Positions 17,438 to 54,396 of a DNA stretch of 64,000 bases are shown here, in pieces. How positions within the stretch are numbered: position 1 is the first letter of the stretch; the number at the start of each line of letters is the position of its first letter. The DNA lies in assembly GCA_963666985.2 (NCBI GenBank), contig CAXXIA010000001.1:32001-96000 (forward strand), given 5' to 3'. The notes beneath the pieces are model-generated. The model was not told the DNA's origin and did not search any database. It saw nothing but the letters and a program-made list of their open reading frames with translations. Source of the DNA: Spirochaetia bacterium (GTDB lineage Bacteria > Spirochaetota > Spirochaetia > DSM-2461). The position numbers and the translations under genes were made by a program.

Positions 17438-19354
17438 ATGAGAAACAATCCCAACGGTTCTTGGTTCATTATTATTGCTATTTCCGTATTCATTCTTGCC
17501 GGATGCGCCGGAAAACCGGAAGTTCCCGTTCCTCATGCTTGGAATGGAGTATTGGATCTTCGAAATTGGGATTTTGATGATGATCGTATTGTGGAACTGC
17601 GGGGGCAATGGATGTTTCTTTGGAAGCAATTCGCCGATCCTTCGGAATTTCCCCCCGAAGCAGGATCGTCCGGAACCATCACGGTTCCCGGGTATTGGGA
17701 TGATTATCCTATAGGAGGAGAAAACGCGGGATCCATCGGATGGGCTACTTACGGATTGGTGATTCTCCTTCCCGAAACCGAAGAATCACTGGCCGTACGG
17801 ATGAAGGGCATCCAGTCGGCTTGGACGCTTTATGTAAACGGTAAGCGGGCGGATTCCGTGGGGGCCGTCGGAACATCTTCGCGGGATTCGATACCCCGGG
17901 ATGCCGTTCGAATCGTTCCCGTTGTTCCGGATAACGGTATTGTTCGCCTTACCCTTCATGTTTCGAATTATCATCATCGAAACGGCGGTATGTGGGAAAT
18001 CGCAAAAATCGGCCGAGAGAATTCTCTTCGGTCTTATCATGAGCTGCTGCTCGTTGTTGATGTTTTCCTTTTCGGTTTCATCATAACAATGGGGCTGCAT
18101 TATTTGATTTCTTTCTTTATGCGCCGTACCGACATGATTTCTCTTTTTTTCGGATCGTTTTGCATCTTAATTGCTCTGAGGGCGGCGGCCATCAGCAATC
18201 TGGATCATGAAGCACTGGTTTCGTTTCTGAATTGGACTCTTTTAAGAAAAATTGAATATACGTGTTTTTATGCCGCAACCGCTTGTTTCTTGAGTTATCT
18301 TCATGCCGTTTTCCCGGACGAATTTTCCCGCAAGGTACTGCGTGTTTTTCAGGTTGTCGGGATTGTTTTCGCCCTGTTCGTTCTTGTCACTCCGCCGTTG
18401 ATTTTTGAGAGGACATTACAGATTTATCAAACCATTACTCTCATCGGCGGGCTTTATTCGGTAGCGGTGCTTATTCTCGCGGTCGGTCACAAGCGGGACG
18501 GAGCCGTTATGCTTCTTTGCGGTTTTATTTTCTTGTTTATCTTGGTTATCAATGATGTCCTCTACGCCGATCAGATTCTCCATACGGGACATTGGCTTCC
18601 CTGGGGACAGCTTGTTTTCCTGATGTCCCAGGCTTATTTAATCAATCATATCTCCAACAAAATGTTCCACACGGTGGAAGAGCAGAATATCCAATTGAAG
18701 GTGAACGCGGAACTTCTCGCCGAATCCCGGCTGGGCATTATCCTTGGACTTGCCAAACTCGCCGAATATCGTGATGAGGACACCGGAGCCCATCTGGAAC
18801 GGATTCGGGAATACTGCAGATTATTGGCGAATCACCTTGCCGGTAAGGAAGAGTATCACGATTATATTACTTCCGATTATATCGACGATCTTTTCGACTC
18901 CTCGATTCTTCACGATATCGGAAAAGTCGGAGTTCCCGATGCCGTTCTCTTGAAGCCCGGTTCTCTGAGCAAGGACGAATTCCTTGTAATTCAGAAACAT
19001 ACAACGCTTGGAGGAGATGCCATCAAGAATGTTGAGGCGACCATGCGAAAGCAGTCTTTTCTGACTTTGGGTAAGGAGATCGCCTACAATCATCATGAAA
19101 AATGGGACGGCAGCGGTTATCCCAGAGGCTTGAAAAAATCTGAGATTCCCCTTTCCGCGCGGATCGTGGCTTTGGCGGACGTGTATGACGCCCTGACTTC
19201 CAAACGGCCCTATAAAGAGGCTTTCAGTCATGAAAAAACCGTGGAAATTATTATCGAAGGTCGGGGATGTCATTTCGATCCCGTCGTGGTTGATGCTTTC
19301 TTGGAAGTTGAGGATGAGTTCAGAAAAATACGCGCCGGATGGAACGAAGAGTAG
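17438..19354 (+). CDS. 7TM-DISM sensor / HD-GYP cyclic-dinucleotide phosphodiesterase
   Basis: Lipobox-like LAGC; extracellular 'VPGYW..GWATY' domain; 7 TM; LHDIGK, HHEKWDGSGYP, ADVYDAL, RPYK. Confidence 0.88.
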   Translation: MRNNPNGSWFIIIAISVFILAGCAGKPEVPVPHAWNGVLDLRNWDFDDDRIVELRGQWMFLWKQFADPSEFPPEAGSSGTITVPGYWDDYPIGGENAGSIGWATYGLVILLPETEESLAVRMKGIQSAWTLYVNGKRADSVGAVGTSSRDSIPRDAVRIVPVVPDNGIVRLTLHVSNYHHRNGGMWEIAKIGRENSLRSYHELLLVVDVFLFGFIITMGLHYLISFFMRRTDMISLFFGSFCILIALRAAAISNLDHEALVSFLNWTLLRKIEYTCFYAATACFLSYLHAVFPDEFSRKVLRVFQVVGIVFALFVLVTPPLIFERTLQIYQTITLIGGLYSVAVLILAVGHKRDGAVMLLCGFIFLFILVINDVLYADQILHTGHWLPWGQLVFLMSQAYLINHISNKMFHTVEEQNIQLKVNAELLAESRLGIILGLAKLAEYRDEDTGAHLERIREYCRLLANHLAGKEEYHDYITSDYIDDLFDSSILHDIGKVGVPDAVLLKPGSLSKDEFLVIQKHTTLGGDAIKNVEATMRKQSFLTLGKEIAYNHHEKWDGSGYPRGLKKSEIPLSARIVALADVYDALTSKRPYKEAFSHEKTVEIIIEGRGCHFDPVVVDAFLEVEDEFRKIRAGWNEE

Positions 19355-19453
19355 GGGATAAGACCGAGGCGAATCATCCTTGGCCGCAGGAGAATCTCGC
19401 AGCGGCCGATTACCGAAGGGAATTAGCGAGCATCCCGTGAGAGTCCGGTGAAT

Positions 19454-19485
19454 AAAAAAAAGGCTTTGCGACCTGCGCAAAGGCT
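19454..19485 (-). terminator. Intrinsic terminator after the duplicated tRNA-Asn 3' end
   Basis: Minus strand gcctttgcg-caggt-cgcaaagcc followed by a T tract. Confidence 0.65.
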
Positions 19486-19708
19486 CTTCTCCCCCGGACA
19501 GACTCGCCCTTCACTTCGGGAACATCGTGTTCCCTCGTTTAGGGACGCCTCGTCATCTTTCGCCGCATCCTGCGGGCTCAGCGCTCCAAGTATTCGCGCC
19601 CGACTCCTCACTTCGAGTCTTTCAGAGAGGTCCGTTACATACGAATTGTTATAAAAAAAAATAAGCCTGACACTGCTGTGTCAGGCTCTTCTCCCCCGGA
19701 CAGACTCG
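19481..19708. repeat. 26-bp direct repeat (tRNA-Asn 3' end plus 8 flanking nt) enclosing a structured element
   Basis: aggctcttctcccccggacagactcg at 19481-19506 and 19683-19708. Confidence 0.9.
19653..19687 (-). terminator. Intrinsic terminator of tRNA-Asn
   Basis: agcctgacac-tgct-gtgtcaggct stem with a T-rich tail on the minus strand. Confidence 0.8.
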
Positions 19709-19763
19709 AACTGCCGACCTAGTGGTTAACAGCCACCCGCTCTACCAACTGAGCTACAGGGGA
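19691..19763 (-). tRNA. tRNA-Asn (GTT), CCA not encoded
   Basis: Cloverleaf TCCCCTG/CGGGGGA acceptor, GGTGG-CTGTTAA-CCACT anticodon arm, TTCGAGT T-loop. Promoter TTGACA (19806-19801)-17-TATATT. Confidence 0.97.
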
Positions 19764-19959
19764 ATGACGTGATGCCGAATATATCGAAATCCCGAATTCG
19801 TGTCAACACAATCATGTTCAATAGCTCGATTTCCCTTGCAGGGAAGGATTAAGCCCCCCTGCATGCGAGCCGTTTCGTCCTATATCCGGCCGGTATTTCC
19901 GGAGAAGCGCAAAAGCGGTTAACCGCGGACGCTTTCCGCCGGATCATCTTTTTTTTCGG

Positions 19960-54032: not shown

Positions 54033-54136
54033 TTTCTTCCTTGTTTCAGGAAAAAATAGCGCGTTTTTTCGTTATGTCCAAGGCCTCAAAGGGGCTTACA
54101 AGATGTGCTGGGGAAAGGTTCGTGAAGTTGTGTTTT

Positions 54137-54341
54137 TGGCGGGAGGGCAGGACTCGCCTTCCACTCGCCGTCGTCGTGACGGCTCCTTCCAGGCCGCTGG
54201 TTCAACCTTCCTCGACTTGCTGTCTCGGATCGCTTCCTATTCGGTCGCGACCGGTTTCACCCTTCGAGTCCTTTTTATCGACAAAAAAAGACCGGAAGCC
54301 CTTTTTAGGACATCCGGTCTTTTTAGCAGGGGCAGGACTCG
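54137..54341. repeat. Partial tRNA 3'-end copy and structured element downstream of tRNA-fMet
   Basis: gggcaggactcg at 54145-54156 and 54330-54341; the minus-strand copy ends CGAGTCCTGCCCTCCCGCCA. Confidence 0.75.
54283..54324 (-). terminator. Intrinsic terminator of tRNA-fMet
   Basis: aaaaagaccgga...tccggtcttttt stem with T tract. Confidence 0.8.
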
Positions 54342-54396
54342 AACCTGCGACCTCCGGGTTATGAGCCCGACGAGCTGCCAACTGCTCTACCCTGCG
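54324..54396 (-). tRNA. Initiator tRNA-fMet (CAT), CCA not encoded
   Basis: C1:U72 mismatch, GGG/CCC anticodon stem around CTCATAA, TTCGAGT T-loop. Promoter TTGACA (54437-54432)-17-TATCTT. Confidence 0.96.

Follow-up and report, generated by a model that had tools for sequence, protein, structure and literature searches.

What is the short, structured stretch of DNA that lies behind the tRNA-Asn gene in a 64,000-nt window of a Spirochaetia genome (the window being the whole stretch of DNA analysed, from contig CAXXIA010000001.1 of assembly GCA_963666985.2), and how did it come to run into a second copy of the end of that gene? A preliminary description of the locus had taken it for a non-autonomous element whose folded strand rebuilds a recombination site matched to the T-arm of its host tRNA. 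Analyses of the window, of the whole assembly, of related genomes and of named sequence records upheld one half of this proposal, in that the stretch belongs to a gene-less family whose ends match the T-arm of the host tRNA; the other half did not hold in the same way, and no recombinase was found linked to the copies. We judge that there is an even chance that the stretch is a gene-less cassette of 202 bp inserted in the 3′ part of tRNA-Asn, one of a family that enters and leaves tRNA genes through recombination supplied in trans.

Both the tRNA gene and the cassette behind it (copy A) lie on the minus strand. The parts of the locus are given here in the order in which they would be transcribed, with coordinates within the window:

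19778 to 19806, minus strand: promoter-like site of tRNA-Asn, TTGACA, 17 nt, TATATT (11 of 12 matches, strong).
19690 to 19764, minus strand: tRNA-Asn(GUU), intact, CCA not encoded (tRNA gene call; Rfam tRNA, 66.1 bits).
19683 to 19708, minus strand: proximal copy of a 26-nt direct repeat (repeat search, exact).
19653 to 19688, minus strand: terminator 1, an 11-bp stem (hairpin 19688-19663) with a T9 run, part of the inserted unit.
19624 to 19652, minus strand: spacer, 29 nt, A/T-rich, without a conserved promoter.
19612 to 19620, minus strand: the address, AGACTCGAA on the tRNA-sense strand, antisense of the T-loop and the first T-stem base.
19507 to 19611, minus strand: conserved core of about 105 nt with helices P2, P2a, P3, P4 and P5 (family model).
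19582 to 19600, minus strand: P2a, a tandem G-A hairpin.
19563 to 19576, minus strand: P3, loop AGGAU.
19519 to 19535, minus strand: P5, loop ACGAU.
19481 to 19506, minus strand: distal copy of the 26-nt repeat (the tail), CGAGTCTGTCCGGGGGAGAAGAGCCT, an exact copy.
19454 to 19482, minus strand: terminator 2 (hairpin 19482-19464), different from terminator 1 and homologous to the terminator directly behind tRNA-Asn in a genome of the same genus, G011.
19486 to 19626, minus strand: covariance-model match of copy A, 79.3 bits (G000:C1:51486-51626).

The promoter-like site of the tRNA was the sole one detected across 19300-19900. The proximal repeat copy, with which tRNA-Asn is complete, runs from T-loop position 3 through the 3′ strands of the T-stem and the acceptor stem and past the discriminator into 7 nt of flank. 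In the distal copy, 19500-19506 form the 3′ strand of a closing helix, P1, while the remainder is the displaced 3′ end of the tRNA; the 5′ strand of P1 is the 9-nt address. Thus the locus agreed in its layout with the preliminary description, which had placed the closing arms at the two ends of 19500-19620. The arms, AGACTCG (19500-19506) and CGAGTCT (19614-19620), were located within an inverted repeat of 10 nt with 90% complementarity (19497-19506 and 19614-19623), and the inverted copy of the host T-loop is TTCGAGTCT at 19612-19620. The duplication of the tRNA 3′ end and the presence of a second, different terminator were likewise as described, and the three internal hairpins turned out to be P5, P3 and P2a of the family model. 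Neither an integrase nor a credible open reading frame (ORF) was present inside the cassette, and no ORF there had a family match. Copy A scored lowest among the full-length copies of its own genome; taken alone, its fold reached a z-score of only -1.54, and 13 of 200 shuffled sequences folded equally well. The case for more than chance therefore rests on the family.

That family proved to be large. The genome (4.86 Mb, 93.1% complete) has 48 tRNA genes, and for each of them the 500 nt downstream were searched for repeats of its own 3′ part, direct as well as inverted. Both kinds were found behind ten genes (Asn, two Met, Gly-CCC, Leu-UAA, Glu-CUC, Pro-CGG, Leu-CAA, Leu-CAG and Leu-GAG), and three further genes had the inverted copy together with a recognisable core. 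Iterated nhmmer searches gave 24 copies in this genome; 16 of these served to build a covariance model, which gave 28 matches there. The preliminary description had asked whether copies sit behind tRNA genes and form arrays, and they do: 18 of the 24 nhmmer copies lie directly behind a tRNA gene on the same strand, at 22-162 nt (11 copies), or further along an array (7 copies). Four more have been split off, three from a tRNA-Arg gene by the same 1.7-kb insertion sequence (IS) and one from tRNA-Val by a 6.9-kb island, and two are unlinked to a tRNA. The arrays comprise six to seven units of 187 nt behind tRNA-Gly-CCC and three units behind tRNA-Leu-CAG. In every linked copy of this genome the 5′ end is antisense to the T-loop and the 3′ strand of the T-stem of the host over 7-15 nt, and the 3′ end is a copy of the last 10-19 nt of that same tRNA, so that the termini change with the T-arm of the host, as they also do in the named records. 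The copies are invariably in the tRNA-sense orientation and a terminator stands behind every tail. The tRNA-Cys gene of this genome (L130, G000:C1:543450-544140) is followed by a decayed remnant whose spacer and address are recognisable; the model missed it, and the copy counts are therefore lower bounds. A second full copy lies within the window; its address is GGACTCGAA, and its 12-nt tail, CGAGTCCTGCCC, matches tRNA-Met:

54324 to 54396, minus strand: tRNA-Met(CAU), host of copy B (tRNA gene call).
54135 to 54277, minus strand: copy B, behind tRNA-Met, 97.3 bits (G000:C1:86135-86277).

Outside this genome the family is widespread among its relatives. Covariance-model matches were found in 28 of 41 genomes of the nearest relatives (own genome included). 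Within the family of this genome 21 of 24 genomes had matches, as did 6 of the 16 other families of the class, and in an even sample across the phylum 16 of 150 other genomes, from 9 of 85 genera, had matches. A scan of species representatives with exact patterns returned 58 loci, whose titles nearly all name Spirochaetota (Treponema, Spirochaeta, Alkalispirochaeta, Rectinemataceae and others). The exceptions were five loci from three metagenome-assembled genomes (MAGs) labelled Deltaproteobacteria and one from a Christensenellaceae MAG, which could reflect mis-binning or a real spread beyond the Spirochaetota. Good copies behind tRNA genes were seen in these MAGs with other labels (L047, L064, L096, L101 and L092). 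The 58 loci contained 89 model matches, of which six are counted twice owing to an overlap between two loci. As in the window's own genome, most (74 of 89) were tied to tRNA genes: 50 lay 9-131 nt behind a tRNA on the same strand and 24 further along arrays, while 15 had no tRNA in the stretch covered, several of these at the start of a contig. The tails in the named loci copy 10-22 nt of their tRNA. At one such locus, in Treponema socranskii ATCC 35535 (KE332515.1:1369216-1372249), the distance from tRNA-Ser(CGA) to the copy behind it is 21 nt. Taken together, own genome, relatives and named loci give at least 24 host anticodons, and the array in one relative (G001) has at least ten units. 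One copy, in G015, that had seemed far from its tRNA is in fact behind a second tRNA-Met gene. Literature searches turned up no description of such an element, although the supplementary motif catalogues of PMC5737381, PMC7160235 and PMC8040213 could still hold one; a gene-less family of structured cassettes of this kind has apparently not been described so far.

What the members share is a fold. In the family model, P1, formed by address and tail, closes two arms: in the left one, P2 encloses the small hairpin P2a, with its tandem G-A pairs and 4-nt loop, and the hairpin P3, and the right one consists of P4 and P5. In a MAFFT alignment of 16 copies from this genome, 79% of the cells were paired, as against 31-45% when the partners were slid by 1-3 columns, and the covariation score was 0.474 against at most 0.146 for slid partners. 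For 104 distinct sequences from this genome, relatives and named records, in an alignment that was fitted to the model and hence leans to it, the paired share was 88.5% as against 32-38%. Changes on both sides of a pair occurred in 33 of the 35 pairs, and no shuffle attained the observed values. The five helices thus covary strongly; the sequence of the stems is free to vary, while loops and junctions are conserved. Outside P1 we counted 40 G-U pairs against about 12 A-C pairs, and tandem G-A or A-G pairs recurred at three positions, indicating that the strand that folds is the tRNA-sense strand. Since the address pairs with the tail on this strand, folding yields a stem that copies the target site as a duplex, and P1 reproduces 7-15 bp of the target duplex. 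In 68 of the 104 sequences the P3 loop reads CAGGAUG; for the P5 loop, 52 have CAGGA(C/U/A)G and 29 have CACGA(N)G. Rfam 15 scans at E up to 10 of the stretch in the window and eight strong copies returned only tRNA and hits below threshold. Among the latter were PrrB_RsmZ (14.5 bits, gathering threshold 44) and CsrB (9.4 bits, gathering threshold 71), in two separate scans, which are explained by the CAGGA(N)G loops. A role of the P5 stem as a second guide was considered and rejected, as one tRNA can carry differing P5 stems.

The unoccupied arrangement for which the preliminary description had asked was found in G011, where the homologue of terminator 2 stands immediately behind tRNA-Asn and leads into the same flank; another partial copy of a tRNA end lies about 100 nt further on. 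In another relative, G013, the orthologous tRNA-Asn cassette is present with about 75% identity, and changes in its stems are compensated. At tRNA-Cys, three relatives have good copies where this genome has the remnant. Contigs of a related strain (runs X3 and X4) gave no cover over 19515-19676; one contig ends at 19506 and none bridges the gap. The same contigs have 6539 other letters between window positions 19329 and 19432, just past the end of the upstream 652-aa ORF. The length of the duplicated segment varies across the family between 10 and about 60 nt: in young copies (Val-CAC, Pro-CGG, Pro-GGG and Glu-CUC) the direct repeat takes in the terminator and totals about 60 nt, which would suffice for units to be gained or lost by homologous recombination.

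These features are consistent with the following course of events. The inserted unit would comprise a tRNA 3′ end copied from T-loop position 3 onwards, a terminator of its own, the spacer, the address and the five-helix core, and it would be followed by the displaced original tRNA 3′ end, which became the tail, and by the original terminator. Cassettes would enter and leave tRNA genes by recombination at the T-loop or 3′ end, with an enzyme provided in trans, and arrays would build up from successive insertions. Homologous recombination between the direct repeats (the tail, often together with the terminator) would then amplify or delete units, and cores would be shuffled among loci by gene conversion. 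As the cassettes lie in sense orientation within the tRNA transcription unit or close behind it and have no promoter of their own, the fold is probably also made as RNA by read-through from the tRNA, and its two CAGGA(N)G loops suggest binding of a CsrA-like protein. Mobilisation in trans is what we infer from this layout, and several observations weigh against it. No recombinase, transposase or nuclease gene was present in or beside the cassettes. No free copy with the form of an attP attachment site was found: two core patterns had no hits in 2.9 million viral contigs, and when plasmids and phages were searched with the tRNA-Gly array by blastn, nothing matched except the gene for tRNA-Gly. 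Between different tRNAs of this genome, identity among the cores is no more than 62-78%, so most copies must be old. Near-identical cores at different tRNAs do occur elsewhere (those of Ser-GGA and Ser-GCU in one genome are 98% identical), but they could have arisen by gene conversion and not by fresh insertion. That compensatory changes have preserved the fold in orthologues is as compatible with an RNA under selection in the host as with an active mobile element, and the core is far more elaborate and more conserved than known folded recombination sites require.

A tyrosine recombinase or HUH nuclease linked to the copies, which the preliminary description had led us to expect, was thus not found, and a flanking of cargo genes by copies, about which it had also asked, was not demonstrated. 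The genome has seven Phage_integrase genes, none of them seen at a copy save one. It has a single reverse transcriptase gene, not near a copy, and a single gene of the IS110 family (DEDD_Tnp_IS110, at C2:2686068), with none of the 28 copies near it; L7Ae, a candidate partner for helices with tandem G-A pairs, was not found. The exceptional integrase belongs to the island at tRNA-Val(CAC), which measures 6.9 kb (L003 154-7065; G000:C2:2042453-2049364) and holds an integrase of 388 aa, IS copies, an IS3-type gene and a PriCT-type primase. It bears on the idea that the cassettes are scars of a degraded island or prophage, the core being an attP arm left after gene loss. That idea would account for the duplication of the tRNA 3′ end starting in the T-loop, a direct repeat that resembles the att duplication made by integrases, and for the copy at the far end of just this integrase-primase island. 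However, the far end of the island is a partial tRNA-Val of about 53 nt, from the anticodon stem to the 3′ end, which is the island's own att repeat, and beyond it follow in order a terminator, a spacer, the cassette, the tail and a near-identical terminator. As the island has its own repeat upstream of the cassette, the cassette predates it. The Val island was therefore rejected as the parent of the cassette; the sole adjacent integrase is independent of it, a further point against the main reading, and homologues of this integrase occurred in three places, none of them at another copy. Covarying stems and conserved loops are moreover unlike double-stranded arms that bind proteins, the same unit of about 190 nt recurs at 24 tRNA types, and the viral contigs, phages and plasmids gave no hits, so that we consider an island scar very unlikely. 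The IS copies between tRNA-Arg genes and their cassettes are likewise secondary. An IS with a 526-aa DDE transposase (DDE_Tnp_1_6, DUF772) is present in at least four copies outside the window in this genome (L001 769-2349, L002 574-2154, L003 1751-3331 and L004 494-2074), two of them inserted, with an identical relative distance of 1757 nt, between a tRNA-Arg gene and its cassette. Beside tRNA-Leu(GAG) of another genome we observed a satellite-like island of about 8 kb (G033:C3; L126 11645-19700) with genes for an integrase, an HK97-type capsid, a prohead protease and a DnaD/HTH replication protein; no link was drawn to two cassettes beyond it, whose tails match tRNA-Leu over 9 nt only.

Mobilisation by a single-strand transposase fares no better. 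Repetitive extragenic palindromes (REPs) and bacterial interspersed mosaic elements (BIMEs), which would be moved by a REP-associated tyrosine transposase (RAYT) or another HUH enzyme, are like the cassettes extragenic, rich in hairpins, present in many copies, placed behind terminators and folded on one strand. Yet Y1_Tnp (PF01797) had no match in the own genome, 93% complete, whereas control genomes did match; together with the Rfam scans, this leaves the cassettes without a counterpart among the described REP and Rfam families, a result in favour of the preliminary description. The folds, of about 120 nt with five helices, differ from palindromes of 20-40 nt, all copies are oriented as the tRNA, and their ends match the neighbouring tRNA. 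A REP-like origin is in our view extremely unlikely.

The constant orientation leads to a more serious alternative, namely that the element is a noncoding RNA of the host and not mobile at all. It would be co-transcribed with the tRNA from the strong tRNA promoter, released by processing of the tRNA 3′ end, and would sequester a protein, for which CsrA is the best candidate. P1 and the borrowed tRNA terminator would stabilise the RNA, P1 having perhaps evolved to mask the duplicated tRNA 3′ end and keep it from competing with tRNA folding; arrays would act like a multi-site CsrB, and the dynamics at the DNA level would be ordinary duplication, deletion and gene conversion. The copies have no promoter of their own: no conserved -10 element was found in the spacers, since 5 of 6 matches were attained in 9 of 82 and their position varied. 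In several copies tRNA and cassette are 9-22 nt apart with no terminator in between, each tail is followed by a terminator, and orthologues keep the fold through compensatory change. The repeat consensus of CsrB is CAGGA(U/A/C)G, which the two CAGGA(N)G loops of the cassette resemble. The P3 and P5 loops are about 45-50 nt apart, the linkers are purine-rich and contain further GGA motifs, and the genome has csrA in a flagellin-fliW-csrA operon. According to PMC7652899, the CsrA consensus from in vitro selection (SELEX) is RUACARGGAUGU, the GGA stands in a hairpin loop and the dimer bridges sites 10-63 nt apart, a range that includes the distance between P3 and P5. The weak hits to the CsrB/RsmZ clan in both Rfam scans point the same way.

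Against such a host RNA, most copies are preceded by a good terminator, 29 of the 104 P5 loops read CACGA(N)G and so have no GGA, and the Rfam scores are far below their gathering thresholds. Descriptions of Csr small RNAs (sRNAs) come from Gammaproteobacteria, while the antagonist in FliW-type systems is a protein, again according to PMC7652899. The presence of CsrA was also unrelated to that of the element: csrA was found in 35 of the 41 relatives, bearing the element or not, and G014, which is 95% complete, has three element matches and no CsrA match. Co-occurrence with CsrA was hence dropped as a discriminator. A host RNA also leaves the match of address and tail to 24 different tRNAs, and the mixed arrays, unexplained. 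We consider this explanation unlikely, though one to be taken seriously, and regard the family of integrating cassettes as the better reading. The address-plus-tail design and the accretion of unrelated modules at one tRNA end point to a role at the DNA level. RNA and DNA roles do not exclude each other. The folded strand is at least as likely to act as RNA as in the single-stranded DNA (ssDNA) form that the preliminary description had drawn from integron attC and CTXphi attP, because it lies in sense orientation inside the transcription unit of the tRNA and has CsrA-type loops.

Accretion at one tRNA end was clearest at tRNA-Gly-CCC, where three types of module have accumulated, each ending in a copy of the tRNA-Gly end. 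The second and third module families, of 70-80 nt, read GAGAGCGAG ... CGAGCCG and GAAGTTGAGAGCCGCGGGC ..., and occur at G000:C1:976139-976215, 416600-416884 and 404990-405458 and at C2:2344210-2344448, in tandem behind tRNA-Gly ends or within cassettes of the main type. Each has a near-antisense address followed by a copy of the last 10-11 nt of tRNA-Gly, and a GCGAG/CGAGC helix containing tandem G-A pairs is common to them and the main core. Two lineages of the main core can also stand in tandem: this was the case behind tRNA-Pro(UGG) in one MAG, where one of the two cores is 89% identical to the core behind tRNA-Leu(UAG) of the same MAG, although its address, its tail and the entire P5 stem have been exchanged. 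The core also occurs apart from tRNA genes. G005 has 37 model matches, mostly away from them, and there (G005:C1, for example L112 261-546) the core, without address or tail, is a passenger inside a 286-nt element with terminal inverted repeats of 16-17 bp, AGGAGTCTGTCGGACTT.

The joint exchange of address and tail raises the question whether the cassette chooses its own target. It could be a homing element that bears a guide: the antisense address, paired with the target copy, would base-pair with the T-arm of the chosen tRNA, and the folded RNA or ssDNA would steer a general recombinase or a host enzyme to it, so that a new address would retarget the cassette. Besides the exchange between the near-identical tRNA-Leu(UAG) and tRNA-Pro(UGG) cores, this is suggested by two T-loop bases that the address also covers (complement GAA) and that have no partner in the tail, and by the unrelated second module behind tRNA-Gly, which shares the address-plus-tail design with a different junction point. 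However, GAA opposite GGG may be just another purine-purine structural motif, and gene conversion from a resident cassette could likewise swap address and tail. No enzyme was identified, the single IS110-family gene not being near any of the 28 copies, and a duplication varying between 10 and about 60 nt does not resemble known guided systems. Self-addressing is therefore, in our estimate, improbable.

How, then, should a cassette of this kind be placed among known systems? Its closest likeness is to elements that integrate into tRNA genes by a tyrosine integrase and to their derivatives without an integrase, the cis-mobilizable elements (CIMEs). With this group it shares an insert bracketed by a repeat of the tRNA 3′ end from the T-loop, the tRNA being left intact, as well as the tandem accretion, the lack of an integrase in the cassette and an unoccupied site in a relative; the T-loop is reportedly one of the sublocations in a classification of tRNA integration sites by Williams in 2002. 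It differs from them in its size of about 190 bp, in having no parent element or cognate integrase that we could find, and in its antisense copy of the target, its covarying five-helix fold and its range of at least 24 tRNA types. We think it best filed as a tRNA-end-targeted, non-autonomous integrative element, distinct by its tiny size, its antisense address and its five-helix fold on the sense strand.

Other comparisons are more partial. Integron attC and CTXphi attP are recombination sites formed by one folded DNA strand, and the cassettes resemble them in being protein-less, in a strand whose fold would bring distant segments together in a target-like duplex, in building arrays and in keeping structure over stem sequence. 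Unlike these sites, they have no R and L boxes, no context of integron integrase and attI and no dif-like site, their target is the tRNA T-arm, and their core is much more conserved in sequence. No attC family was among the Rfam hits at E up to 10 on the nine copies; an integron integrase and Xer sites were not specifically searched for. With CsrB and RsmZ sRNAs the cassettes have in common CAGGA(N)G hairpin loops, linkers rich in purines and GGA, and a tandem amplification that multiplies sites; they differ in having two such loops per unit, no promoter of their own, Rfam scores below threshold, a FliW-type host and a tie to tRNA ends. The 3′ETS-leuZ RNA is a short, unstructured sponge for sRNAs from the 3′ external transcribed spacer of a tRNA transcript, at a single locus. 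The cassette would similarly be a functional RNA from the trailer of a tRNA transcript, but it is a folded module in many copies with a duplicated tRNA end. Miniature inverted-repeat transposable elements (MITEs), the bridge RNA of IS110 and the guides of IS200/IS605 offer a last likeness, as non-autonomous units with inverted-repeat ends or with a part complementary to the target. Address and tail of the cassettes serve as inverted ends of 7-15 nt. Unlike MITEs, the cassettes have no target duplication of fixed length and no cognate transposase. Unlike bridge-RNA and guide systems, address and tail overlap on the target and do not flank a core dinucleotide, and, unlike the IS110 bridge RNA, the copies are not beside an IS110/IS1111 recombinase.

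In practical terms, unannotated units of this family inflate the calls of tRNA fragments and att sites in island finders and break assemblies at tRNA loci. Should the reading as integrating cassettes hold, three questions become testable: by what means an element without genes locates 24 different tRNA genes, whether the part of an att site can be played by a folded single strand, of DNA or RNA, in settings other than integrons and CTXphi, and whether RNA decoys exist in bacteria with FliW-type CsrA systems. If self-addressing were true, about a dozen base changes would retarget a protein-less element, a tRNA-directed counterpart of transposition by bridge RNA or guide sequence. If the reading as integrating cassettes is right, the 3′ ends of spirochaete tRNA genes would receive, beside integrase islands, also a whole population of protein-less cassettes of about 190 bp, each with a conserved fold and an address of its own.

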